Shown in pieces: positions 15,349 to 52,103 of a stretch of DNA of 64,000 nt; the stretch's first letter is position 1, and each line of letters starts with the position of its first letter. The notes under the pieces were generated by a model. It worked only from the letters and a program-made list of their open reading frames with translations. It was not told where the DNA came from and did not search any database. The position numbers and the translations under genes are program-made. The DNA is from Chloroflexota bacterium (lineage in GTDB: Bacteria > Chloroflexota > Limnocylindria > Limnocylindrales > CSP1-4): the NCBI GenBank assembly GCA_042408925.1, contig JBHOQO010000012.1, forward strand, positions 106 through 64,105, given 5' to 3'.

Positions 15349-15639
15349 ATGGAACTGCTTGTCGCTGGCTGGGTGGCGCGCTTGACCCTGTTCGCCGCCC
15401 TCCTCGTCGGCGGCCTGTCGCTCCAGGCCGGGCTCGGGCCCCTCGACGCTGCGCTTCGCGCCGCCTTCGCCGCCTTCGTCTTCACGACCGCCGGCCGGAT
15501 CGCCATCAGCCTCCTCGAAACGCCCGAGCAGCGCCTCCTCCGCCTCCGGGCGAAACGCGAGCGTGCCCGCGCCAAGGGCGCGACGGGGGCACGATCGGCG
15601 GCGGTGGCGGCTGAGCCATCCGCGAGGACGAGCCGATGA
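15349..15639 (+). CDS. hypothetical small two-TM membrane protein with basic C-terminus
   Basis: GGAGG RBS 8 nt upstream of ATG; 2 predicted TM helices; no recognisable family. Confidence 0.4.
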   Translation: MELLVAGWVARLTLFAALLVGGLSLQAGLGPLDAALRAAFAAFVFTTAGRIAISLLETPEQRLLRLRAKRERARAKGATGARSAAVAAEPSARTSR

Positions 15640-16547
15640 CGACCGGCTCCTGGCCCCGCCTCGCGGGCGGCAGCGCACCCTGGCTCCTCGCCCCCGAGAT
15701 CTCGGTACCGACGACGCGTGTCCCGGCGGCAGCGGAGGCATCGAAGGCCCGCGTCGCCCCATTCGTCTCCGGTGCACCGGCCGTGGTCGCGGTGGGCTCC
15801 GCCGACCGAGAGGCGCTCATCGCCCGCTACGGCCACCTCGTCAAGTACGTCGTCGGGCGGCTCGGAGCGGTCGTCCCCGGCGTCTTCGACCACGAGGACG
15901 CGATGCAGGCAGGTGCCATCGGCCTCCTCCGCGCCATCGATGCCTATCGACCCGAATCGGCGGCGTCGTTCGAGTCGTACGCCATCGTCCGCATCCGGGG
16001 CGCCATCCTCGACGCGGTCCGCGCCCTCGACGCCGTCGGCCGAGCCGGACGCGAGGCGGCGCGTTCGATCGGGGCGGCGATCGCCGAGCTCCAGGCCGAG
16101 CTCGGGCGGATGCCGGACGAGACGGAGGTCGCCGCCCGCCTCGGGATCTCCGTCGAGCGCTATCGGGAGCGCCTCGCCGCCGCCTCGCTGACGACGATCT
16201 CCCTCGACGCTCTCGAGATCCACGAACGGGACGACGAGGGCACGAGCGTCCTCGACTCGGCCGTCGACCCCGACGCCCCCGATCCCGAGGAGGCGGCCCT
16301 TCGCCGAAGCGAGGTGGAGCAGCTGGCCCGCGAGATCGAGCGGCTCCCCGAACGCCAGCGGCTCGTCCTGGCCCTCTACTACCAGGATGGTCTGACGTTC
16401 CGCGAGATCGGCGCCCTCCTCGGGGTGACCGAGTCGCGCATCTGCCAGATCCACACCGAGGCCGTGCTCGCCCTGCGAGCACGGCTCCTTGGACCGGCGG
16501 CGGTCGCCGACCGCCGCCTCCGACGCACCCGGAGGGCGTTGCCATGA
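15636..16547 (+). CDS. fliA: flagellar sigma factor sigma-28 (FliA/SigD/WhiG family); start may be ~45 codons downstream
   Basis: sigma-70 regions 2, 3 and 4 recognisable (YGHLVKYVV.., AIDAYRPE..FESYAIVRIRGAILD, ..LTFREIGALLGVTESRICQIHTEAV). Confidence 0.85.
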   Translation: MTTGSWPRLAGGSAPWLLAPEISVPTTRVPAAAEASKARVAPFVSGAPAVVAVGSADREALIARYGHLVKYVVGRLGAVVPGVFDHEDAMQAGAIGLLRAIDAYRPESAASFESYAIVRIRGAILDAVRALDAVGRAGREAARSIGAAIAELQAELGRMPDETEVAARLGISVERYRERLAAASLTTISLDALEIHERDDEGTSVLDSAVDPDAPDPEEAALRRSEVEQLAREIERLPERQRLVLALYYQDGLTFREIGALLGVTESRICQIHTEAVLALRARLLGPAAVADRRLRRTRRALP

Positions 16548-17263
16548 TCCGTGGCTGGTACACCTCGCTGTCGGGCGCCATCGCGGCGCTCCGACGGCTC
16601 GATGTCGTCGCCGACAACATTGCCAACGTCAACACGCCCGGTTTTCGGGCCAGCCGAACGGGGCAGGCCGACTTCGGGATCGAACTCGCCCGAGTGGACG
16701 GCCTTCACCTCGGGCGTCTCGGGACCGCGACCGTGCCGATCGGTACGGTCCTCGATCTCGCCCAGGGCGGCATGGAACCGACGGGCGAGCCGACGGACCT
16801 CGCCATCGAGGGCGACGGCTTCTTCGTCGTGCGCCGCGCCGATGGGTCCCTCGCCTACACCCGGGCCGGCGCCTTCCGGTTCGATGCAGCAGGGCGGTTG
16901 ACGACCGTCGACGGCCTCCTCGTCATCGGCACCGATGGTGGGCCCGTCGTGGCGCCGGCCGGGCCGTTCGTCGTGGCCGCCGACGGAACGGTTGCCGGCA
17001 CCGGGCAGCGGATCGCCCTCGTCGCCGCGCCGGCCGGCAGCGTCCGTCGCCTCGGCGGCTCGCTGTTCGCCATCGACGCTCCAACGACCCCGGCCGCTGG
17101 CCGGATCCGTCAGGGTGTCCTGGAGCGATCGAACGTCGATCTCGCTTCGGCCCTCACCGACCTCATCGCCCTCCAGCGGTCGATGGCCCTGAGCTCGCGG
17201 GCCTGGTCGGTCGCCGATGCGACGCTCGACGAGGGGATCCGCATCGGGAGGCTGCGCGGATGA
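16544..17263 (+). CDS. flgG: flagellar basal-body rod protein FlgG/FlgF-like (short)
   Basis: N-terminal rod motif (SGAIAALRRLDVVADNIANVNTPGF) and C-terminal rod motif (GVLERSNVDLASALTDLIALQRSMA). Confidence 0.8.
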   Translation: MIRGWYTSLSGAIAALRRLDVVADNIANVNTPGFRASRTGQADFGIELARVDGLHLGRLGTATVPIGTVLDLAQGGMEPTGEPTDLAIEGDGFFVVRRADGSLAYTRAGAFRFDAAGRLTTVDGLLVIGTDGGPVVAPAGPFVVAADGTVAGTGQRIALVAAPAGSVRRLGGSLFAIDAPTTPAAGRIRQGVLERSNVDLASALTDLIALQRSMALSSRAWSVADATLDEGIRIGRLRG

Positions 17264-17328
17264 GCGCGTGGCCTCAAGACCGCGCGCCGATCCGCCGACA
17301 CCTCCAGAAGCGATGAGGGAGGTCGACC

Positions 17329-17631
17329 ATGAAGATCAACGACATCCCGGGCCGCAGCCTCGATCCGCTCGTCGGCGGTCGCTCGCTGCCCGGCGTCCGA
17401 GGGGGCGATGCGCGGGATCGCGCGACGGGCACCGATCCGGTGGCCTCGCCCGCCGCCAGCGTCAGCCTCTCGGAGCGGAGTCGCGAGCTCCACGCCGTCC
17501 TCGCCGCGGCCGCCGCTGCCGCGGATGTCCGGGCGGAGCGGGTGGACGCGATCCGGCGGCAGCTCGACGCCGGCACGTACCGGATCGACCCGGTCGCCGT
17601 CGCCCGGGCGATGCTCGAGCGCTCGAGGTGA
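17329..17631 (+). CDS. flgM: anti-sigma-28 factor FlgM
   Basis: ~100 aa, C-terminal ERVDAIRRQLDAGTYRIDPVAVARAM typical of FlgM; directly downstream of fliA/rod gene. Confidence 0.75.
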   Translation: MKINDIPGRSLDPLVGGRSLPGVRGGDARDRATGTDPVASPAASVSLSERSRELHAVLAAAAAAADVRAERVDAIRRQLDAGTYRIDPVAVARAMLERSR

Positions 17632-17636
17632 CGACG

Positions 17637-18077
17637 ATGGCAGCGGCGCCAAGCCCTCCTGGGAGGGAGCCGCTCCGGTCGCTCGAAGCCCTCGTCGGGG
17701 CGTTGGAGCAGCTCGCCCTCGCCGTCGCTCGCCACGATCACGCCGCCCTCTCGGCGGCAACGGCGGAGGCGACCGCGCTCGTCGAGCTGGTCGAGCGGCA
17801 GGCCAGTGATGGGCTCGGTCTCCAGCCGGCCGGGCTCGACCGAACGACGCTCGACGAGCTGACCCGCCGCCTCGACGCGAGCGCGCGGCGGGCTGCCCTC
17901 CTCATCGAACGGGCCTGGTCGTCCGAGGCGGCCGCCATCCAGCTCCTCGCGCGGCTCCTCGCTCGTGATGGGGCTGAGCTGGCGACGTACGACCCGCTCG
18001 GCCACGCCGCGGCAACCCCGATGGCTGGAGGCCGTTCAGCGCCCACGCCGCCGCTCGTCGTCGAGCGGCAGGCTTGA
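17637..18077 (+). CDS. FlgN-like flagellar chaperone (putative)
   Basis: 146-aa helical protein between flgM and flgK (FlgN position); weak family resemblance only. Confidence 0.4.
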   Translation: MAAAPSPPGREPLRSLEALVGALEQLALAVARHDHAALSAATAEATALVELVERQASDGLGLQPAGLDRTTLDELTRRLDASARRAALLIERAWSSEAAAIQLLARLLARDGAELATYDPLGHAAATPMAGGRSAPTPPLVVERQA

Positions 18078-18087
18078 GGAGCCGCCG

Positions 18088-19494
18088 ATGCCCGGCGCCT
18101 GGTTCGGGTTGTCGCTCGGCCTGAGCGGCCTCCGGGCCGCCCAGACGATGCTCGAGACCGCCGCCCACAACACCGCCAACGCGAGCACCGTCGGCTATTC
18201 GCGCCAGCGAGTCCGCCTCGTCGCCGCGCCGCCATACACCTACCCGGCCTTCAACCGGTCCGGCTTCGGCCAGCTCGGGACGGGGGTTTCGATCGCGGCC
18301 GTCGAGCGGATCCGTGATCAGTTCCTCGATGCCGAGATCCGGACCCAGGTCGGGGCGACCGCTGCCTGGGCGGCGCGGCGAGATACGCTCGCCCGTGTCG
18401 AGACAATCCTTCCCGAGCCCTCGAGTGCGGCTCTCTCGGCCGCCCTCGCCCGATTCTGGGGGGCCTGGCACGACGTCGCCGCCGAACCGACGTCGATGGC
18501 CGCCCGCTCGGCCCTCGTCGAGCAGGCGGCGACCCTGGCCGCGGGGCTGAACCGGACGAGCCGCCAGCTCGCCGATCTCTCCGCCTCCATCGACGGCGAG
18601 CTCCGGGACCGGATCGGCGAGGTCAACGACATCGCCGGCCGCATTGCGGTCCTCAACGCCCAGATCCAGCGGGTCGTCGTGACCGGGGAGCGGGCGAACG
18701 ACCTCGAGGACGCCCGTGACCTCCTCCTCGAGCAGCTCTCCGAGCTCATCTCGATCGCCGCCCAACGGCAGCCCGACGGTACGATCACCGTCCTCGTCGG
18801 CGGGACGGACCTCGTGAGCGGCGACACGGTCCGGCCGATCACCGCCGGGACCAACATCGCCGGCCACGTCGAAGCGCGCTGGAGCTGGGGCGATTCCGTG
18901 GAGCTGGGAGAGGGGCGCCTCGCTGCCCTGGCGGAGCTCCGGGATGGGCCGCTGGCGTCGTACCGAACCGCCCTCGACGACCTCGCCGCCGGGGTCGCCG
19001 ATGCCGTCAATGCCCTTCATGCAACCGGGGTCGATGCGACGGGCACGCCCGGCGGCGCGTTCTTCACGTACACCGCCGGTGACGCCGCCGGCACCCTGGC
19101 TGTGGCGCCGGCGATCGCGGCCGATCCCCGCCGGGTTGCCGCCGCGTCCAGCGCCGGCCAGCCGGGCGACGGATCGATCGCCGCCGCCATCGCCGAGCTC
19201 CGCTCGGCCCGGATCCTCGCCGCCGGGACGCAGACGGCTACGGACTTCTACGCCGGGCTCGTCGGCCGGATCGGCGCCGATAGCCGGAGCGCCGCTGAGA
19301 TCGCCGCTGGCCAGTCGACCGTCGTCGACTACCTCCGCAACCGGCGGGAGGCGGTGAGCGGGGTCTCTCTGGACGAGGAGGCGGCCGACATGATCCGCTT
19401 CCAGCACGCCTATGCGGCGGCGGCGCGGGTCATCACGGCCGTCGACGAGCTCCTCGACACGCTCATCAACCGGACCGGGCTCGTGGGGCGGTGA
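18088..19494 (+). CDS. flgK: flagellar hook-associated protein 1 FlgK
   Basis: N-terminal GLSGLRAAQTMLETAAHNTANASTVGYSRQ and C-terminal DEEAADMIRFQHAYAAAARVI motifs. Confidence 0.85.
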   Translation: MPGAWFGLSLGLSGLRAAQTMLETAAHNTANASTVGYSRQRVRLVAAPPYTYPAFNRSGFGQLGTGVSIAAVERIRDQFLDAEIRTQVGATAAWAARRDTLARVETILPEPSSAALSAALARFWGAWHDVAAEPTSMAARSALVEQAATLAAGLNRTSRQLADLSASIDGELRDRIGEVNDIAGRIAVLNAQIQRVVVTGERANDLEDARDLLLEQLSELISIAAQRQPDGTITVLVGGTDLVSGDTVRPITAGTNIAGHVEARWSWGDSVELGEGRLAALAELRDGPLASYRTALDDLAAGVADAVNALHATGVDATGTPGGAFFTYTAGDAAGTLAVAPAIAADPRRVAAASSAGQPGDGSIAAAIAELRSARILAAGTQTATDFYAGLVGRIGADSRSAAEIAAGQSTVVDYLRNRREAVSGVSLDEEAADMIRFQHAYAAAARVITAVDELLDTLINRTGLVGR

Positions 19495-19591: not shown

Positions 19592-20461
19592 GTGATGCGC
19601 GTCACCCAGCAGATGCTTCATGCCAACGCCCTGCGCGCCCTGGCGACCAACCTCGCTCGGCTCGACCGGGCGGCCGAGCAGGTCGCCACGACGAAGCGGC
19701 TGAATCGCCCCTCGGACGACCCGGCCGACGTGCGGCGCGCGGTCAAGCTCGCCGACGCGTTGGCCGAAATCGAGCAATACGTGCGGAACGTCGGTGCCGC
19801 CGACCGTCTGCTCGGGATCGCCGATACGGCCCTCGGTCGAACCGCGGACATCGTCGGCCGGGCTCGCGAGCTCGCCGTCGCCGGCGCCAACGGCAGCCTC
19901 TCGGCCGCCGACCGCTCGGCGATGGCCCAGGAAGTCCGCCAGCTAGCGGAGCAGGTCGTCGTCCTCGCCGCGAGCCGGGTGGGGGACGCGTACATCTTCT
20001 CGGGCCTTCGGACCGACACGCCACCGTACGCCTCGCCGACGGGCCCGTACCAGGGCGACGCCGGGGCGATCCTGGCCTGGATCGGTCCGGGGACGAGCCT
20101 CCGGTTGAACATCGTCGGGAGCGACGTCTTTGGCCCGGTCCTCGGGGCGCTCGACGCCCTCGCGACCGAGCTCGAGGGCGGCGGACCGGTCTCCGCCGCG
20201 ACGATCGCCAGCCTCGATGTCGCCCTAACGGCCGTCGTCGACGGGCGGGCGATCGTCGGCTCCCGCCAGAACCGCCTCGAACTCACGAGAACCGCGCTCG
20301 ACGATGCCCGCCTGGCGACCGAACGGCTCCGGTCGATGGTCGAGGACGCCGACCTCGCGGCGGCGATCAGCGACCTGCGACGGCAGGAGACCACGTACCA
20401 GGCTGCCCTCGGAGTCACGGCGAGGGTCCTCTCGATGAGCCTCATCGAGTACCTCCGCTGA
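19592..20461 (+). CDS. flgL: flagellar hook-associated protein 3 FlgL
   Basis: flagellin-like N- and C-termini (MRVTQQMLHANALRALATNL..; ..ETTYQAALGVTARVLSMSLIEYL). Confidence 0.85.
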   Translation: MMRVTQQMLHANALRALATNLARLDRAAEQVATTKRLNRPSDDPADVRRAVKLADALAEIEQYVRNVGAADRLLGIADTALGRTADIVGRARELAVAGANGSLSAADRSAMAQEVRQLAEQVVVLAASRVGDAYIFSGLRTDTPPYASPTGPYQGDAGAILAWIGPGTSLRLNIVGSDVFGPVLGALDALATELEGGGPVSAATIASLDVALTAVVDGRAIVGSRQNRLELTRTALDDARLATERLRSMVEDADLAAAISDLRRQETTYQAALGVTARVLSMSLIEYLR

Positions 20462-20464
20462 TCG

Positions 20465-20905
20465 ATGGCGACGATCCACCAGCCGCCGTCCGCCACGCCC
20501 GCTCCCGACACGTCGCGCTCCGGTGGCGAGGTCCCGGAGCAGCGCCCGCTTCCCACGAGGCTCCGGCTGGCCGAAGGCCTCGTCGGCCTGCCCGCGCTCC
20601 GTCGCTTTCGGGTCCAGTTCGTCGGCGACGGCCTCCTCGAGCTCGCCTGCCTCGACGATCGAACCTTCGCGGTCTATGCTGCGCCGCTAGCCCTCGTCGA
20701 CCCGGCCGCGGACACCCTGCTCCGCGAGCGCCACCTGGCCGAACCCGGCGACGCCGTCCTCGTCTTGCTGGCGGCCCACGGGGAGCCACCGGTCGTGACC
20801 GCCAACCTCGCCGGGCCGATCGTCGTGGGGGCAGACGGCCGCGGTCGCCAGCTCGTCATCGAGGACCCGGCCTTCCCGCTTCGGGCGCCGCTCGGGAGCC
20901 GCTGA
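20465..20905 (+). CDS. fliW: flagellar assembly factor FliW (CsrA antagonist)
   Basis: 146 aa, FliW family pattern (F..GL.GL...R.F.L......L...Q......FAV..AP......Y); followed by csrA as in Bacillus. Confidence 0.85.
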   Translation: MATIHQPPSATPAPDTSRSGGEVPEQRPLPTRLRLAEGLVGLPALRRFRVQFVGDGLLELACLDDRTFAVYAAPLALVDPAADTLLRERHLAEPGDAVLVLLAAHGEPPVVTANLAGPIVVGADGRGRQLVIEDPAFPLRAPLGSR

Positions 20906-20907
20906 GG

Positions 20908-21141
20908 ATGCTCGTCCTCACCCGCCGGCCGGGTCAAGGGATCCGGATCGGGCCGGAAATCGAGCTGACCGTCGTCCGCGTCAGCGGCGAGCGGGTCGTC
21001 TTGGCCGTGGCTGCGCCGGCGGCGGTCCCCGTCGTCCGCTCGGAGCTCCTCGCCGCCGTCACGGCCGAGACCCACGCCGCCGCCCGGAGCGCGCGCAGCG
21101 TCCGGCACGCCCTCGACGATCGGGTCGGCGGCTCGGTGTGA
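20908..21141 (+). CDS. csrA: carbon storage regulator CsrA
   Basis: MLVLTRRPGQGIRIGPEIELTVVRVSGERVVLAVAAPAAVPVVRSEL matches CsrA family almost residue by residue. Confidence 0.9.
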   Translation: MLVLTRRPGQGIRIGPEIELTVVRVSGERVVLAVAAPAAVPVVRSELLAAVTAETHAAARSARSVRHALDDRVGGSV

Positions 21142-21207
21142 GAGCTGGCACAACCCGCGGGAGCCGTGCCCGCCCGAGAGCGCTCGGCTCGGTCGCGACC
21201 CCGGACG

Positions 21208-21786
21208 TCAGCGACCCGCTTCGATCACGAACCAGCGCGACGCGTCGTCGCCCGAGAGGCCGTGACGCGACTCCAGGCCCCGGAACGTCTCCTCCCCGCT
21301 GACGTCCACCGGGAGCTGGACGACCGAGCTGAAGCCGACCTTGATGAGGAGGGCGACGAGATCGGCTGCAGACCAGGGCGGCAGTGCCTTGAGACGGTCG
21401 AGCGAGAGCACGCCCTGGAGGGCGAGCCGGCGGACCTCCGCTTCCGCGACCGCCCGATCGCGGCCGACGAGCCGGAGTCGTCCACCGGGCGCAAGCACCC
21501 GGGCCGCCTCGAGGACGAAGGCGAGAAGACCCTCGCCCAGCGTGTCGGGGAGCTCCCAGGCGTAGATGCGATCGACACTCCCGTCATCGAAGGGGAGGGC
21601 GAGGCGCAGATCCAGGTCGAGGTCGCCAACCTTCGGATCTTGGGAGACGCGGATCCATCCGGGCAGGCGGACCTCGCCCGGACCAAGGTGGAGTCGGAGC
21701 GAGCGTTGGCCGCGATAGCGATCCGCGGCTTCGAAGCCGGCGAGATAGCGGAGCGGGTCGAAGGCAGGCCTCGGGGACGTGGTCAT
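21208..21786 (-). CDS. class I SAM-dependent methyltransferase-like protein (last gene of glycosylation operon)
   Basis: MTase fold motifs (LHLGPGEV..; FDDGSVDRIYAW..; RVLAPGGRLRLV); ATG overlaps upstream gene stop (ATGA). Confidence 0.5.
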   Translation of the reverse strand: MTTSPRPAFDPLRYLAGFEAADRYRGQRSLRLHLGPGEVRLPGWIRVSQDPKVGDLDLDLRLALPFDDGSVDRIYAWELPDTLGEGLLAFVLEAARVLAPGGRLRLVGRDRAVAEAEVRRLALQGVLSLDRLKALPPWSAADLVALLIKVGFSSVVQLPVDVSGEETFRGLESRHGLSGDDASRWFVIEAGR

Positions 21787-23843
21787 GGGATCCTCCCGGC
21801 GCTGGTACGTTCGGCGACGGCAACCGTCACGTCGGAGGGAGCGCAGCCCCCCGCTCCGCCACGAAGCGTGACGACGGCTTCGACGTTGGCGAGACGGATG
21901 TCGAGCGCGAGCAGGCGACGCCAGCGCTCGGCCCCTGGATGACGACCGCGGAGCGCGGCGGCGGGATCGAAGCGGACGAACGACAGCCCGGCCGAGACGA
22001 GCTCGGTCCCCACCGGGATCGCCTCGGGGTCCGGCGGCCAGCCCCCGACGATACGACCGTCGGGTTCGGCGAGCCAGCCATAGACGGCCTCGAGCCCTTC
22101 GTCGACCGCGACCTCCAGGAGGAGAGCAATGTGTTCCGGCGTGTAGACGTCGCCCGGCGCGAGCGTGGCCACCCAGGCGCCTCGCGCGGCAGCGAGCCCA
22201 CGGTTCAGGGCGCGAGCCCAGCGGGCGAAGGGATCGGTATCGCTCCGGGGACGAAGGGGCACGCATCGCACCCGCGGATCGGCGATCGGCGGCGTGGGAG
22301 CCGTGGTGTCGACGACGGCGAGCACCTCCACCGCCCTGTGGAGGCCGGTCAGGATCGATCCGATCGACCGGTCGAGGGCCTCGCGCTCCGCATCCGCCTC
22401 CGACCTCGACGCCGTCTCGATGGCCGAGCCATGAACGCGTACGACCGGAATGATGACGCTGACGAGCCTAGGATCGGCCGACGGGCGCGCCCGGCAGACG
22501 CCGTCTTCGCCACGTCGCCGGGCGAGGAGCCGCTCGGCGGCCGCGTCGCGCTGCCAAACCCGCCGCCGGTGCTCGAGCGCCTCGCGGGCCGAGGACCGGA
22601 TGGCGGCCGCCGCCTCGGCGGGGACGGCCACGCTCCGCCCGAGGGCGCCGATTCCAGCGTGGGCGGCCGCCCACCAGAACGCGTCGGCCCACTCTGCCGC
22701 GCGCTGCCGGGCGTCGTACTCGGCGAGGACCCGCTCCCGGGCGCGACCGACGACGTCAGCCCGCAGGCCCGGCGACCGCGCCAGACGGAGGAGCGTCTCC
22801 AGCCATTCGGCCTTGTTCTTCACGAGGAAGCCATCCACCCCGTGGCGGATGACGTCGTACGGCCCACCGTCCATCGTCCGGGAGGCGATGGTCACGGCTC
22901 CGGCAAGGGAGTACTCGAGCCAATGGAGCTCCGACTTCGCCCGATCGAACTCGTCGCCCAGCAGGGGCGCCAGTCCGATGTCCGGCGCCGCTCGAACGAG
23001 CGCCGCCGCGAAGGCCGGGACGCCGATCACGTAATCGTGGACCTCGTCGACGATGGCCTCGAGCCGTGCTCGGGCCTCGGGATCGTCTGGCGCCCCGAGC
23101 CACACCCGCCAGAGGTCTGGGTGGCGGCGCTTCGCTTCGTCGACCGGGCCGCGACAGACCTCGTAGTAGTTGAGACGGGACAGGTTCCCGTAGTGGAGGA
23201 CGCGCGGGTTCCCGGGGAGGTTTGAATCTGGTGTCGTCGTCTCGTACCAGTGGGGGTCGACGGCGTTGCGGATCACCCGGACCCGGTCACTGTACGGCCA
23301 GACGCGGGCCGCCAGGATCGGCGTCGACACCGTCACCAGATCCGCTCGCCGCAGCATCGCCTCGATGAGCCCTCGCTCCGGTGCCAAGATCCGGCGGTTC
23401 CCGTTCCAGGCGGGGATCCGCAACAGGTCGTCATCGGTTTCGTAGACGAGGGCTCGGCCGGCCAGGAGGCGCGGCTCGGTCACCAGCGCCTCCCACATGG
23501 GGCGGAGGAACTCGTTCGCGGCCCGCTGGATCCGGTGACCGCTCGCTTGGGCATGCGCCATCGCCTCGCTGTGCCGCGGGGTTGCGAACCGACAGTCGAA
23601 GCAGAGATGATGCGTCTGTTCGGCCCGTCGAAGGACGAGGACGTCGGCCCACTCGATCGCCTGACGGTCGGCCCAGGCAAGGCGACCGCCGTCGACCGTC
23701 GTCTGGGGTGCGGCGACCGTCAGCCAGGACTTGAGCTCCACGCCGAGCTCCTCGAGATAGGGTTGGAACATCCAGGTCCGGTAGAAATCGCAGACGCCGA
23801 CGGGCGTGGAGTTGTAGACGAGGACGCGCAGCCGCCCGTTCAT
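21783..23843 (-). CDS. bidomain glycosyltransferase: N-terminal GT-B (GT4-like) + C-terminal GT-A (GT2-like) domain
   Basis: GT4-type C-half (GAVTIASRTMDGGPYDVIRHGVDGFLVKNKAEWLETLLRLARSP); GT2-type LVSVIIPVV..ALNRGLAAARGAWVATLAPGDVYTPEH; start MNGRL at 23843 overlapping upstream stop. Confidence 0.65.
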   Translation of the reverse strand: MNGRLRVLVYNSTPVGVCDFYRTWMFQPYLEELGVELKSWLTVAAPQTTVDGGRLAWADRQAIEWADVLVLRRAEQTHHLCFDCRFATPRHSEAMAHAQASGHRIQRAANEFLRPMWEALVTEPRLLAGRALVYETDDDLLRIPAWNGNRRILAPERGLIEAMLRRADLVTVSTPILAARVWPYSDRVRVIRNAVDPHWYETTTPDSNLPGNPRVLHYGNLSRLNYYEVCRGPVDEAKRRHPDLWRVWLGAPDDPEARARLEAIVDEVHDYVIGVPAFAAALVRAAPDIGLAPLLGDEFDRAKSELHWLEYSLAGAVTIASRTMDGGPYDVIRHGVDGFLVKNKAEWLETLLRLARSPGLRADVVGRARERVLAEYDARQRAAEWADAFWWAAAHAGIGALGRSVAVPAEAAAAIRSSAREALEHRRRVWQRDAAAERLLARRRGEDGVCRARPSADPRLVSVIIPVVRVHGSAIETASRSEADAEREALDRSIGSILTGLHRAVEVLAVVDTTAPTPPIADPRVRCVPLRPRSDTDPFARWARALNRGLAAARGAWVATLAPGDVYTPEHIALLLEVAVDEGLEAVYGWLAEPDGRIVGGWPPDPEAIPVGTELVSAGLSFVRFDPAAALRGRHPGAERWRRLLALDIRLANVEAVVTLRGGAGGCAPSDVTVAVAERTSAGRIP

Positions 23844-24973
23844 GCGCCGATTTCCGAAGCGAGCGGCCGAGTGGTTAGCGCGGGACCGCCGGCGAGATGG
23901 AAGAGGCGTACCACCTGCTCGAAGAAGCGAGTGCGCTGGCTCCGGATCCAGCGTCGGTAGTCGTCGAACGCCCTGCTCGCGCCGGGATCGTCGAGGCACC
24001 AGGCGATCCGCGCGACCGCCAGATCGATGTTCGCATCGGGGACCTTGAACAGATCGGGGATCGGGAGGTCCTCGGCGAACGCCGCGGCCCCCTGGCGGCC
24101 GGTCACGACGCAGCAGCCGGCGAGCGCTGCTTCGCGAGGCAGCCGGTCCATGCCTGGGTGCGGGCCGAAGTCGATGTAGACCCGACAGGTGGCCAGGAGC
24201 GCCGCCACCCCGGCAGCATCCAGTCCGGCGATGGGCACCCACTCCGCCTCGACGCCCAGCGCGAGACTGCGCTGGATGATCTGTATCGTCGTCTCGAACC
24301 CCTTCTTTGGATTGAAGGCGACCCGGCGCCGCCTCGGTGTCTCGGTCGTGGGGGCGAAATGCGCGGCCGCTAGATAGTCCCCGAGCGGCTCGCCAGCCGT
24401 GCCGTGGACGGCCAGGTAGGCTCGGGCGTAGGCCGACTGATAGAGGTGGACGGGCGCCCGCCGGGGAGCCGGACGCTGAAAGAAGCGGCCGAGGCCCGAG
24501 ACGAGGTTGTTGTCGACGCTCAACCACCAAAGGCCGACGCGGGCGGCGACGAACTCGTCGACGGCGCAGCTCCAAACCTCCGGGAGAATGATGACCGTGT
24601 CGCCGTCGTCCGGGAGCGGCGCCCGCCAGAGCGGCACGCGATAGTGGCGGTAGGCATCCGGGATCGTTGCGGTCGTAACCGACTCCGCAAATGCTCGCCC
24701 GGGGGCCGGCGCCAGATACGCCATCGCCGCGTCGGCGCCGAGTCCAACGAGCGCGTCGACGAGCTGATGGAGTGCTTCGGGCCCGCCCGTGACGCTCTCG
24801 GCGGGGCACGTCACGATCACCCGCTGGTGGGCCTGGAGCGCGAGCGGGGAGGGGCCCGGTTCCGTTCTCCTGGCGGTCGGAGGCTCACCGGGCCGGCGCC
24901 CCGTCGTCCGCTTGGGCGGGCGGGGGAGTAGGATCGCGGGACGGGCGTGGCGCCGCTCTCGCCGATGCTTCAC
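23840..24973 (-). CDS. hypothetical protein, probable GT-B-fold glycosyltransferase; N-terminal extent uncertain
   Basis: C-terminal half resembles GT-B nucleotide-sugar-binding half (..AALLATCRVYIDFGPHPGMDRLPREAALAGCCVVTGRQG..EDLPIP..); ATGA couplings at both ends. Confidence 0.4.
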   Translation of the reverse strand: MKHRRERRHARPAILLPRPPKRTTGRRPGEPPTARRTEPGPSPLALQAHQRVIVTCPAESVTGGPEALHQLVDALVGLGADAAMAYLAPAPGRAFAESVTTATIPDAYRHYRVPLWRAPLPDDGDTVIILPEVWSCAVDEFVAARVGLWWLSVDNNLVSGLGRFFQRPAPRRAPVHLYQSAYARAYLAVHGTAGEPLGDYLAAAHFAPTTETPRRRRVAFNPKKGFETTIQIIQRSLALGVEAEWVPIAGLDAAGVAALLATCRVYIDFGPHPGMDRLPREAALAGCCVVTGRQGAAAFAEDLPIPDLFKVPDANIDLAVARIAWCLDDPGASRAFDDYRRWIRSQRTRFFEQVVRLFHLAGGPALTTRPLASEIGA

Positions 24974-26022
24974 GAGAAGAGCTCCAGCCAGGTCAGCATT
25001 CCCTGGCGCAGACGATCGAAGTACTCACCGTCGAGCGGCAGGCGCTCGGCGAGCTCCTTGTAGGCGCCGCTTACGGTCGTCGCGTCCAGCCGGACCGAGT
25101 CGACCGCCCGCCAGAACGTCTCGTTCGCCTCGATCCCGGCTGCCTCCTTCCTGAGGTTCGCGAAGACGTTGCTCGCTCGCCGGTGCTCGACGGTAGGCAG
25201 CCCGGAGACCATCGCCAGGCCGAGGTGGTCGGCGACCCGCTTGGCCAGAACCCCGGCCCAGATGTCGTCGAACCGATCGAAGGGCCAGCCGCGGCCCATG
25301 AGGGGGAACCACATCGCCGGCGCGAACTCGGCGCGGAAGGCGAGGTTCATGCCGCTCATCGGGAAGTAGGTCCCACGGGGGATGACCTGGACCGCCTGCG
25401 GCCGCTCGAGGCGGAGGTCGGCATGCAAGAGCTGGGTCGGTGCGTCCAGATCCGGGATTCCTTCCCAGAGGCCGTGACTGACGACGACCGGCGCGGCGTC
25501 CCGAATGCCGTAGGGGAAGCCGCGGGTGTAGAACGCGCAGACCGGTTGCCAGCCCAACGTCACGCGTCGCTGGAGGTTGGCGACATGGGTCGCCAGGAAC
25601 GGTGCCGAGCCGGGATAGCAGTCGTCGTCGATCGTTACGATGACGTCGGCCCCGGACTGCCAGGCCTTCCAATAGCCGAAGTTGCGGATGGCCGCATTGT
25701 GGCGCGGGATGATCCAGGATCGGGATCCGAGCTCCCGGTCGATCTCCGCCCAGGAGTAGTGCTCGATCGTCCAGTTCCGTGGGAGCTCGATCTGGCGCTC
25801 GGGGTGGTCCTCGCAGACGATGACGTCGCAGGCGCCGAGCTCCTCTCGCCAGTCGTCGAGGAACGCGAGGTCCCGGATCGTCGGGATGACGACCGCCACC
25901 CTGGGCGACTGATCGCGGGTGCTGCCTCGAGGCGCCAGATCTGCCTTCGGCTGCTGCCTGGAATCGTCGGGTGGCGTCGCGAGAGCTGATTCTCCCGCGA
26001 TCGGCGGCGCGTTCGGCGACAT
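24970..26022 (-). CDS. reversibly glycosylated polypeptide / UDP-L-arabinopyranose mutase family (GT75) homologue
   Basis: collinear similarity to plant RGP/UAM: VVIPTIRDLAFLDDW, DDDCY (DxD), GFPYGIRDAAPVVVSHGLWEGIPDLDAPTQL, PRGTYFPMSGMNLAF, DRFDDIWAG, DHLGL..GLP..H..ASNVFANLRKE, YFDRL..GMLTWLE; GAGGAG RBS 5 nt upstream of ATG at 26022. Confidence 0.75.
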   Translation of the reverse strand: MSPNAPPIAGESALATPPDDSRQQPKADLAPRGSTRDQSPRVAVVIPTIRDLAFLDDWREELGACDVIVCEDHPERQIELPRNWTIEHYSWAEIDRELGSRSWIIPRHNAAIRNFGYWKAWQSGADVIVTIDDDCYPGSAPFLATHVANLQRRVTLGWQPVCAFYTRGFPYGIRDAAPVVVSHGLWEGIPDLDAPTQLLHADLRLERPQAVQVIPRGTYFPMSGMNLAFRAEFAPAMWFPLMGRGWPFDRFDDIWAGVLAKRVADHLGLAMVSGLPTVEHRRASNVFANLRKEAAGIEANETFWRAVDSVRLDATTVSGAYKELAERLPLDGEYFDRLRQGMLTWLELFS

Positions 26023-26217
26023 CGGTCTCCTCGTCGTTCCTCGATCGAGTCGTGGCGAGCGGGGACGGCGCGGGGCCCCGCGGTCGACCAATTCCACGCC
26101 ACAGGATGCGGCCGACGGGCGGGCGCGGCCAGACCCGACTTCGGGTAGGTGAAGACCCCGGGAGGCACCAGGTGTCCGCTCGCTCCGAGGCCGGCGGGCG
26201 GCGCCTCGGCGCACCAC

Positions 26218-26348
26218 CGGTCGCGCCGATTCCTCGCCGATTCCTCAAGTTGGGCTCGCCGGCGACCGATCCCCAGCCAGACGGGAACGGTTCCCGTCGG
26301 CGGCATGGACGCCGCCAAGGATTCGGCAGTGGCTAGGAGGCCAGTCCA
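26218..26348 (+). promoter_or_regulatory. flagellin leader/promoter region: tandem GCCGATTCCTC boxes (sigma-28 -10-like) and GGA-containing candidate CsrA sites including SD
   Basis: cgCGCCGATTCCTCGCCGATTCCTCaag; downstream GGCGGC-atggac-GCCGCC hairpin followed by AAGGATTC and ctAGGAGGcc SD. Confidence 0.3.
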
Positions 26349-27182
26349 GTGGGAGTCCGAATCAACACGAACATCGAGGCGCTCATCGCCCAGCGGAACC
26401 TGGCGATCACCTCGAGCAACCTCGGCAAGTCCGTCGAGAAGCTCTCCTCGGGCCTGCGCATCAACCGGGCAGCCGACGATGCGGCGGGCCTCGGGATCAG
26501 CGAGAAGCTCCGAGCCCAAGTTCGCGGTCTCAATCAGGCCAGCCGTAACGCGCAGGACGCCATCTCGATGGTCCAGACCGCGGAAGGTGCGCTCAACGAA
26601 GTCCACGCCATGCTCCAGCGGATCCGCGAGCTGGCGGTCCAGTACAACAACGGGACGAACGACGCGGACTCGAAGGCGTCGATCCTCGCCGAGGTGAAGC
26701 AGCTCGCCGACGCCATTGGCACCGTCGCCAGCCAGACCCAGTTCAATGGCGTCAACCTCCTCTCCGGCACCGGGACGACGGTCACCTTCCAGGTTGGCGC
26801 CAACGGCGGCGAGACGCTCAACGTCGGCTTCGGCGGCCTCGACGCCGGCGTCTCGTCGGTCTCGGCGTTCGTCTCCGCGGCGAACGTGACCTCCGTCTTC
26901 GGCACCGGGACCGCCACGATCAGTGCGGTCGACGATGCCATCAGCTACATCAGCTCGATGCGCGGTACCTTCGGCGCCGCCCAGAACCGCCTCGAGCACA
27001 CGATCAACAGCCTGAACGTCGCCTCGGAGAACCTGGCTGCGTCGGAGTCGCGGATCCGTGATCTCGACGTCGCCGCCGAGATGGTGAACTTCACCAAGCT
27101 CCAGATCCTCCAGCAGGCCGGCACGGCGATCCTCGCCCAGGCGAACCAGGCCCCGCAGTCGGTCCTCGCGCTCCTCCGCTAG
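26349..27182 (+). CDS. hag: flagellin (FliC/Hag), short form with Ser/Thr-rich central segment
   Basis: GTG start 7 nt after AGGAGG; conserved N-terminus (VRINTNIEALIAQRNL..SSGLRINRAADDAAGL) and C-terminus (AQNRLEHTINSL..ILQQAGTAILAQANQAPQSVLALLR). Confidence 0.95.
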   Translation: MGVRINTNIEALIAQRNLAITSSNLGKSVEKLSSGLRINRAADDAAGLGISEKLRAQVRGLNQASRNAQDAISMVQTAEGALNEVHAMLQRIRELAVQYNNGTNDADSKASILAEVKQLADAIGTVASQTQFNGVNLLSGTGTTVTFQVGANGGETLNVGFGGLDAGVSSVSAFVSAANVTSVFGTGTATISAVDDAISYISSMRGTFGAAQNRLEHTINSLNVASENLAASESRIRDLDVAAEMVNFTKLQILQQAGTAILAQANQAPQSVLALLR

Positions 27183-27206
27183 GCGAGGAGTCGACCGGTC
27201 CGGTGG

Positions 27207-27236
27207 GCCGGCGGTCGGCGTGGCCGCCGGCTCACC
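27207..27236 (+). terminator. GC-rich hairpin downstream of flagellin (partial terminator/attenuator before fliS)
   Basis: GCCGGCGG..(9 nt)..CCGCCGGC inverted repeat 25 nt after hag stop. Confidence 0.35.
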
Positions 27237-27299
27237 CCGTCCAGTCTCCACCCGGTCCACGACACCGCCGTCCACCAGCGACGAACGGAGCGACCAGCG

Positions 27300-27731
27300 A
27301 TGTACGACCCGACGGCCACCTACCGCAGCGCCCAGGCCACGACCGCGACCCCGGTCGGCCAGGTCGTCCTCCTTCTCCAGGGAGCGGTCCGCTTCGGACA
27401 GCGCCACGTGGAGGCGCTCGCGCGCGGCGATCGCGAGGCGGCCCACACCGCCTCGATCCGCTGCCAGGCGATCGTCGCGGGCCTCCAGGAGGTGCTCGAT
27501 CTCCGGGCTGGGCCGATCGCGGCCCAGCTCGACGCCATCTACGACTTCATCCTCCGGCGACTCGTCGAAGGCAACCTTCGGGGCGACCCCCGCCCGACCG
27601 AGGAGGCGATCGGTCTGCTGCGGGATCTCCTCGACGCCTGGACCGAGGTCGCCGCTCGCCACGGCACCGAGACGCACCCTCACGCCGAGGCGCCAGCCTC
27701 CCTCAGCACCCGCCAAGCGATCCCGGCGTGA
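27300..27731 (+). CDS. fliS: flagellar export chaperone FliS
   Basis: FliS family pattern (YRSAQATTATPVGQVVLLLQGAVRF..A...G.....A......I...L...LD). Confidence 0.85.
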   Translation: MYDPTATYRSAQATTATPVGQVVLLLQGAVRFGQRHVEALARGDREAAHTASIRCQAIVAGLQEVLDLRAGPIAAQLDAIYDFILRRLVEGNLRGDPRPTEEAIGLLRDLLDAWTEVAARHGTETHPHAEAPASLSTRQAIPA

Positions 27732-27973
27732 ATCCGACACCACACGGCCCGGAGGCGGCGCTTCGGCGCCGGGTGATCCGCTCGCCGCGGCGTCGGATCC
27801 CGGGCGCCCTCGACTGGCTGTTCACCGACCCGAGCGTGGCGAGTGCGCTCGCGGCCCATCTGGCAACGATCGCGATCACCGCCCGCCGCAGGCGTCCGCC
27901 GCCACGTGCCGAGCGCCGACGAGAGCGCGATCGAGCTCAAGTCGACTCACCGGCCGGCCGATCCCTCTCCTAG
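27728..27973 (+). CDS. possible small Arg-rich ORF between fliS and fliD (FliT-position; speculative)
   Basis: GTG overlapping fliS stop; 81 codons, no family signature; composition partly GC-artefact-like. Confidence 0.15.
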   Translation: MNPTPHGPEAALRRRVIRSPRRRIPGALDWLFTDPSVASALAAHLATIAITARRRRPPPRAERRRERDRAQVDSPAGRSLS

Positions 27974-51727: not shown

Positions 51728-52103
51728 TGGTGGAGATGGGGGAGAGTCGAACTCCCCGTCCAGAGCCCTTCGCCAGGGACCAGCTACGAGCGTGTCCGGT
51801 GGTTTCTCGTCGATCGATCGGCCGATCACCGGCAGCCTGCCGATCGATCCAGCCGCGTGCCCCGAGATTGGGCTTGGCTCCGGCCCACGCGGCGCTCGGC
51901 CGGGCTGCAGCCCCGCTTCATGACGCTTCCACGACCCGCGGGGCGGAGGTCGCTTCCACGCTCACCTAGGCGGCCTTAGGCCGCGAGGGCGAGAGCAGAC
52001 TGGCGGTTGCCAGTTACTTCGGTTGCCGCCTGTTTTACGAGGCCTGACGGCACCTCGGCTCGCGTTCCCTGACAGCCAGACCCTGTCGAGACCGCGCATC
52101 CCC
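51728..52103 (-). ncRNA. ssrA: tmRNA (ssrA), ~376 nt; predicted tag ending ..NRQSALALAA
   Basis: 5' end GGGGATGCGCGGTCTCGACAGGG (acceptor/D-arm consensus), 3' end GGACGGGGAGTTCGACTCTCCCCCATCTCCACCA (T-arm + ACCA); internal ORF ..GGC AAC CGC CAG TCT GCT CTC GCC CTC GCG GCC TAA; adjacent smpB. Confidence 0.85.

Follow-up and report, generated by a model that had tools for sequence, protein, structure and literature searches.

A probable sigma-28 promoter and CsrA-type leader at the flagellin gene of an uncultured high-GC bacterial lineage

We identified the region at 26200-26348 of a 64-kb stretch of DNA (hereafter the window) as a probable sigma-28 promoter followed by a CsrA-type leader of the flagellin gene, which would be placed under the control of a partner switch. 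This leader is an ordinary case of the known CsrA-FliW-flagellin system and the mechanism is not new. All the sequence features named in the original prediction for the region are in place, and it had recognised the right system, but it named the wrong -10 element and the wrong upstream GGA.

The window has a GC content of 72%, and the flagellin leader is surrounded by a plus-strand late flagellar cluster, with the complete regulator set (fliA, flgM, fliW and csrA) encoded in the window. A FliA/WhiG-family sigma-28 gene is found at 15615-16547 on the plus strand (TIGR02479, 225 bits against a cutoff of 189.6), with its true start codon somewhere within the open reading frame. Genes for a FlgF-like rod protein (16544-17263) and for the anti-sigma-28 factor FlgM (17329-17631, plus strand; Pfam FlgM, 1.1e-15; ATG with a Shine-Dalgarno (SD) sequence upstream) are followed by those for FlgK (17965-19494) and FlgL (19592-20461). 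Next to these are fliW (20465-20905, plus strand), which gave a weak Pfam FliW match that is above threshold (32.1 bits against a cutoff of 25), and csrA (20908-21141, plus strand; Pfam CsrA, 8e-18). Both are on the same strand as the flagellin gene and 5.2 kb upstream of it, in agreement with the distance of 5 kb given before. The flagellin gene itself (26349-27182, plus strand) has a GTG start, where the relative L164 has ATG, and encodes a protein of 277 amino acids with matches to Flagellin_N (2.7e-46) and Flagellin_C (9.4e-30) in Pfam. The genes for FliS and then FliD lie 3' of it, and the leader and promoter fall within a 326-bp divergent intergenic region.

A 5-kb insert (21166-26022) separates csrA from the flagellin gene. 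It houses three plus-strand open reading frames of lower third-position GC, none of which matched Pfam or NCBIfam, and two minus-strand genes, the second of which encodes an RGP-like glycosyltransferase (24970-26022). The pairing of glycosyltransferase and flagellin is kept in relatives, and this insert may be a flagellin glycosylation island. Elsewhere in the window, a full-length tmRNA gene was found at 51728-52103 on the minus strand (RF00023, 101 bits).

The best PDB match of the window CsrA is 5DMB_D, a Geobacillus CsrA that was crystallised with FliW. Residues 3-73 are aligned, and the alignment takes in the C-terminal extension, the part of CsrA that FliW contacts (PMC7652899). The csrA start lies 2 nt after the fliW stop and the csrA SD is inside fliW; this tight junction resembles the one in B. 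subtilis, where translational coupling of fliW and csrA governs stoichiometry (PMC6529632). FliW is the weakest link of the set: besides the modest Pfam score, the NCBIfam FliW match (E = 4e-7) was below the curated equivalog cutoffs, and the comparison with a solved FliW-family protein (PDB 2AJ7) gave E = 0.086. Both csrA and fliW are placed in the flagellar late operon beside flgK and flgL.

We collected 158 related loci from protein-guided scans of genome and metagenome collections and a further 11 by searching for records identical to the closest flagellins (85-91% identity), giving a total of 169. Six lineages make up the close clade (the window, the L001 group, L162/163/169, L164, L165 and L002), and they have in common the gene order RGP-glycosyltransferase (minus strand), flagellin, fliS and fliD. 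Most of the close clade is labelled Chloroflexota bacterium and one member Candidatus Binatia, while the next-nearest flagellins, at about 60% identity, come mostly from Thermoleophilia (Actinomycetota). Phylum labels conflict among the closest MAGs (L001, L002, L162 and protein P0015), being either Chloroflexota bacterium or Candidatus Binatia bacterium. An exact-protein look-up for strain variants of the window flagellin, with a V or an M start, matched no record. We also found that in approximately 45 of 134 non-redundant relatives (L009, L028, L045, L099 and L137 among them) the flagellin gene is directly 3' of the end of a CsrA-like open reading frame (...EIW..V..EN...), with a gap of 30-60 nt; these loci have one GGA stem-loop at the SD (for example CGGA-AAGGAA-UCCG) and lack a free-standing leader.

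The predicted sigma-28 promoter consists of a -35 element, CTCAAG (26244-26249, plus strand), and a -10 element, ACCGATCC (26265-26272, plus strand), separated by 15 nt, which corresponds to 16 nt between CTCAA and the -10. The -35 element (14.9 bits) is invariant in the six lineages and is the sole good -35 match within the intergenic region, and the -10 element reads RCCGAYNC in the six lineages. When the close clade was aligned, these two elements were kept near the leader upstream of about 26279, and their flanks were not. The pair lies between two tandem boxes and the first hairpin of the leader and was absent from the original prediction. A looser pattern was matched by 73 of the 89 non-redundant relatives that have a free-standing leader, and 61 of these 73 carry CTMAAG-N16/17-CGAY at 60-150 nt before the start. 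These 61 were used for a two-block matrix, and the derived family consensus is CTMAAG-N14-GCCGATNA. Over the whole 64 kb, the best match of this matrix was the flagellin promoter, with 23.0 bits at 26244/26267, whereas shuffled sequence gave a mean maximum of 11.8 bits and a largest value of 16.9 bits. Second on the plus strand was a fliD promoter, 37 nt upstream of fliD, with CTCAAG at 27936-27941 and GCCGATCC at 27957-27964 (N16 after CTCAA), and third was a flgM promoter, with CTCAAG at 17273-17278 and GCCGACAC at 17294-17301 (CTCAA-N16-GCCGA). All three window promoters are of the form CTCAA-N16-RCCGA. Since the matrix was seeded with a pattern of our own choosing (CTMAAG ... CGAY), its strong columns are partly circular, and the fliD and flgM matches serve as the independent check. 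One caveat is that the proposed -10 starts with A where the consensus has G. According to a study of actinobacterial WhiG/FliA promoters, the consensus is a -35 of XT(C/A)AX, 16 nt and a -10 of GCCGA, the first two -10 bases are variable, and flagellin belongs to the targets predicted most often (PMC13595943); the A of the window -10 is thus one mismatch, a variation that these authors allow (PMC13595943). Based on this conservation and these scores, we predict that CTCAAG/ACCGATCC is the working flagellin promoter.

For flgM, a first guess at the promoter, CCTCAAG-N8-CCGATCC, was discarded because its spacing was wrong and the matrix scan gave GCCGACAC as the -10. The flgM spacer holds a second GCCGAT-like sequence, GCGCCGATCC, at 17285-17293. 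A scan of 25900-27400 for sigma-70 promoters and terminators found none. In addition, the block AGACCCGACTTCGGGTAGGTGAAGACCCCGGG (26127-26163) is kept in all six clade lineages while the rest of the intergenic region varies; either an upstream CCCG or a downstream CCCC could be the pairing partner of its CGGG segment, and the block lies at a varying distance of about 74-132 nt from the divergent glycosyltransferase start. We considered this block as a regulator site of the flagellin promoter and rejected it, since it sits anywhere from 64 to 126 nt away from the -35, depending on the lineage, and is therefore not tied to that promoter.

The two tandem boxes had been reported before, and they are indeed present: CGCCGATTCCT occurs twice head to tail at 26224-26245 (26224-26234 and 26235-26245, both on the plus strand; TRF period 11, 2.1 copies, 100% match), and the -35 element CTCAAG takes its first two bases from the end of the second copy. 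Each box contains GCCGATTC, which matches GCCGATAA at 6 of 8 positions, and the likeness to a sigma-28 -10 that was first pointed out is genuine, although a working -10 role is unsupported, given the want of a -35 partner and of conservation. The original prediction took both GCCGATTC boxes to be working sigma-28 -10 elements of tandem promoters, with CsrA acting on AAGGAUUC and the SD. The family -10 block on its own does fit the boxes well (11.4 bits for box 1 and 7.5 bits for box 2), box 1 even better than the -10 that we propose (8.8 bits), which is a second caveat to our assignment, and a CTCGGC with a 3/6 match to CTCAAG is at the correct distance upstream of box 1. However, no -35 partner was found for the boxes at the correct spacing, where the -35 scores were -12.6 and -12.7 bits, and the combined scores consequently fall to 0.4 and -5.9 bits, while the conserved promoter reaches 23.0 bits. 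The boxes are also missing from the five other close-clade lineages and from all 169 fetched loci, and the bases immediately 5' of CTCAAG, which is the position of the boxes in the window, differ in every close-clade lineage. Together with the placement of the upstream CsrA site discussed below, this makes the tandem-promoter reading very unlikely.

The direct repeat could instead be the site of a transcription factor, such as a response regulator, that activates or represses the flagellin promoter. Classical direct-repeat activators bind repeats that are one helical turn apart and adjoin the -35, and the period of 11 bp, the identical copies and the position abutting the -35 all fit that geometry; a perfect tandem duplication with a period of at least 11 is, moreover, improbable by chance, with 0.19 expected per 64 kb of this composition. 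Against a factor site, the repeat is kept in no relative, and the rest of the window shows no enrichment of the motif, with 3 matches of at most one mismatch found and 3.4 expected. The window as a whole has 16 perfect short tandem duplications with periods of 8-15, most of them of period 9, and 4.8 were expected; this excess suggests that slippage duplications are common here and favours neutral slippage, so that a factor site appears extremely unlikely. We consider it highly improbable, too, that the boxes are a recent functional gain, either as extra -10-like sites that load or trap the sigma-28 holoenzyme or as weak secondary promoters with a longer leader, which if true would tune flagellin transcription in one lineage only. 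The boxes are most likely a lineage-specific 11-bp slippage duplication that abuts the -35 and has no promoter role.

From the position of the -10, transcription is predicted to start at about 26280 (7 nt after the -10; range 26279-26281), which would give a leader of about 69 nt, and the clade alignment shows hardly any variation between about 26279 and the start codon. The 83-nt stretch at 26278-26360 has a minimum free energy (MFE) of -42.3 kcal/mol (z = -4.0), better than all 200 shuffles, and folding predicts three leader stem-loops, namely hairpin 1, hairpin 2 with a GGA loop, and an SD stem-loop. Hairpin 1, GACGGGAAC-G-GUUCCCGUC, is a perfect 19-nt palindrome at 26280-26298 on the plus strand, at the predicted 5' end of the mRNA, and had gone unlisted in the earlier description of the region. 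Clade members share it, with an A-U pair replaced by G-U. In leaders further away its position is taken by other hairpins, and in every lineage folded the hairpin begins at the predicted +1, with GACGGGA..., GGUGG... or GUCGG.... That the hairpin and the predicted transcript start together across lineages fits a structural role of a 5'-terminal stem-loop, and from this model hairpin 1 probably protects the mRNA from 5'-end-dependent decay.

Hairpin 2, GGCGGC-AUGGAC-GCCGCC (26299-26316, plus strand), is the predicted primary CsrA site and the equivalent of BS1. Its arms (GGCGGC at 26299-26304 and GCCGCC at 26311-26316) had already been noted as a hairpin, but the GGA at 26307-26309, within the 6-nt loop AUGGAC, was overlooked. 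In the six close lineages the loop is AUGGAC, AGGGAU or AAGGAC, that is A-N-GGA-Y, with the GGA fixed and its neighbours varying. Of 89 related leaders, 83 have a hairpin of this type, defined as at least 5 bp with GGA in the loop and located 18-100 nt before the start, whereas shuffles gave 10.7 on average and 19 at most. The stems are unrelated in sequence (GGGGCGAC, GGAGCGCC, CCUCACC, CCGGA and CGGCCCAC), and two Clostridium loci (L075 and L077) are included. When all 71 hairpins were aligned with MAFFT (alignment A1), the 3' arms were out of register between 5-nt and 6-nt loops, and pair counts were taken on the 29 sequences with 6-nt loops only (alignment A2). In these 29 sequences, 89% of cells are paired, a percentage that is inflated because the hairpins were selected for pairing, while the diversity of pair types is not; double changes occur at all eight of the 8 pairs. 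The covariation score is 0.676 against 0.19 in shuffled alignments, none of 500 shuffles was as high, and pairing falls to about 40% when the partner is slid by one column. The loop GGA of hairpin 2 is likely to be the main CsrA site, judging from its conservation within changing stems.

A third GGA (26319-26321) is part of AAGGAUUC (AAGGATTC in DNA; 26317-26324, plus strand), just 3' of hairpin 2. The original prediction modelled the leader on Bacillus hag, in which BS1 is GCACAAGGACGUGC, and assigned the upstream CsrA site to this sequence. The two-GGA architecture and the regulators of that model hold and AAGGATTC is present 3' of the hairpin, but the upstream site is predicted to be the loop of hairpin 2, which carries the invariant upstream GGA, and the assignment of this site to AAGGAUUC is not supported. 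The third GGA is specific to the lineage: the five other close lineages have CCGAUUC, UCGAUUC or CAUCUGG at its position. On the other side, 50 of 84 leaders across the family have a GGA, typically as GGGAC, no more than 10 nt beyond the 3' end of the first GGA hairpin, where shuffles gave a mean of 9.7, and this enrichment suggests that the window may have gained an auxiliary contact used by other branches. At most, we predict that AAGGAUUC is such an auxiliary CsrA contact. In the MFE fold, its GGAUUC (26319-26324) pairs with GAGUCC (26352-26357) and thereby encloses the SD stem-loop. In Thermoleophilia-type loci such as L017, L030 and L043, a third GGA, in most cases GGGAC, starts directly at the 3' foot of the first GGA hairpin, an arrangement that is outside the published two-site model as far as the literature consulted shows.

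The SD stem-loop, UGGCU-AGGA-GGCCA (26330-26343, plus strand), is invariant in the clade and is the predicted second CsrA site, equivalent to BS2. The AGGAGG that had been proposed as the SD is at 26335-26340, 8 nt before the GTG at 26349. Among 90 leaders, 77 have the SD GGA looped out by a stem of at least 4 bp, whereas the flank-shuffle mean was 21; these figures are to be read in the knowledge that a GGA is expected in any AGGAGG, that the SD stem has 4-5 bp and that 72% GC forms hairpins easily. The stems vary between leaders and include GAUC/GAUC, AUCAUC/GAUGAU, CUUC/GAAG, GGCU/GGCC and CAGC/GCUG.

Rfam scans at gathering score and by E-value gave no family for the leader, and 25900-26500 gave only a 10.7-bit chance match within the coding region. 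We also built a covariance model (R1) from 24 leaders, with the clade of the window excluded. Its sole significant match in the window was 26297-26351 (24.4 bits, E = 1.4e-4), and the next best match had 13.7 bits. It might be argued that the leader hairpins serve mRNA stability or translation efficiency only, that the GGAs are not CsrA sites and that the targets of CsrA are elsewhere. High-GC leaders fold readily, an SD contains GGA of necessity and the support for FliW is weak, all of which are in keeping with such a role; yet some 80 leaders from several phyla, the Clostridium loci among them, keep the loop GGA unchanged on stems of differing sequence, the A-N-GGA loop is that of the footprinted CsrA sites of flaA and hag, and csrA and fliW belong to the same late operon as flgK and flgL. 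We regard a role in stability or translation efficiency only as unlikely, and the CsrA-type leader is the reading that we adopt.

Under the CsrA-type reading, the FliA/WhiG sigma factor encoded in the window, together with RNA polymerase, would recognise CTCAAG (26244-26249) and ACCGATCC (26265-26272), and transcription would start near 26280. Flagellin transcription would be timed to the completion of the hook through the release of sigma-28 from FlgM. In the resulting mRNA, hairpin 1 at the 5' end would shield the transcript, hairpin 2 would present AUGGA and the SD stem-loop would present AGGA. A CsrA dimer could then bridge both GGA loops and block the binding of the 30S subunit. FliW would bind CsrA and free the mRNA, unless unsecreted flagellin holds FliW, which is the Hag-FliW-CsrA partner switch.

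These findings extend the Hag-FliW-CsrA homeostasis circuit, by sequence only, to an uncultured high-GC lineage. Flagella have been described as uncommon in Chloroflexota (PMC13212565). About 80 leaders of Thermoleophilia and their relatives share the leader architecture, with covarying stems, which speaks for the circuit being ancestral among flagellated bacteria. On balance, we lean towards the two-GGA-stem-loop flagellin leader being a deeply conserved and uncatalogued cis-regulatory RNA family that is found in Clostridia, Thermoleophilia and Chloroflexota-labelled MAGs. The practical yield is a corrected prediction of the promoter and the transcription start, and the correct GGA for mutation.

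Work on the B. subtilis hag leader and the Hag-FliW-CsrA partner switch reportedly goes back to Yakhnin in 2007 and Mukherjee in 2011. The partner switch has been reviewed (PMC7652899, PMC6529632, PMC13443453), and the hag leader has two GGA stem-loops, one of them at the SD (PMC13443453, PMC7652899). The flagellin leader in the window has the same layout, with a sigma-28-class promoter and two GGA stem-loops, one covering the SD. In both systems fliW is directly followed by csrA and the two close a flgM-flgK-flgL operon, fliS and fliD are 3' of flagellin, and CsrA has a C-terminal extension, with the best structural relative of the window protein being FliW-bound. The two differ in that here 5.2 kb of unannotatable open reading frames and glycosyltransferase-like genes lie between csrA and flagellin, the leader carries a further hairpin at its 5' end and a third GGA specific to the lineage, and the -35 reads CTCAAG in place of TAAA. 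The host is also an uncultured lineage with 72% GC, in which the circuit is predicted from sequence. With regard to the promoter, the actinobacterial WhiG/FliA promoters have the same -35, 16-nt spacer and -10 layout (PMC13595943), whereas the nearest MAGs here are labelled Chloroflexota and not Actinomycetota. The flaA leader of C. jejuni contains a pair of ANGGA stem-loops, of which the second covers the ribosome-binding site (PMC4894983), and in the hag and flaA leaders alike CsrA binds both stem-loops and blocks the ribosome. The window shares with flaA the two GGA-loop stem-loops, the second over the ribosome-binding site, and the compensatory changes (PMC4894983), as well as a sigma-28 promoter and FliW as CsrA antagonist, which is a predicted role here. 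Unlike the window, flaA has a 45-nt leader without a separate 5' cap hairpin, and in Campylobacter fliW is not linked to csrA. The SD loop of the window is UAGGA, whereas the loops of flaA are A-N-GGA.
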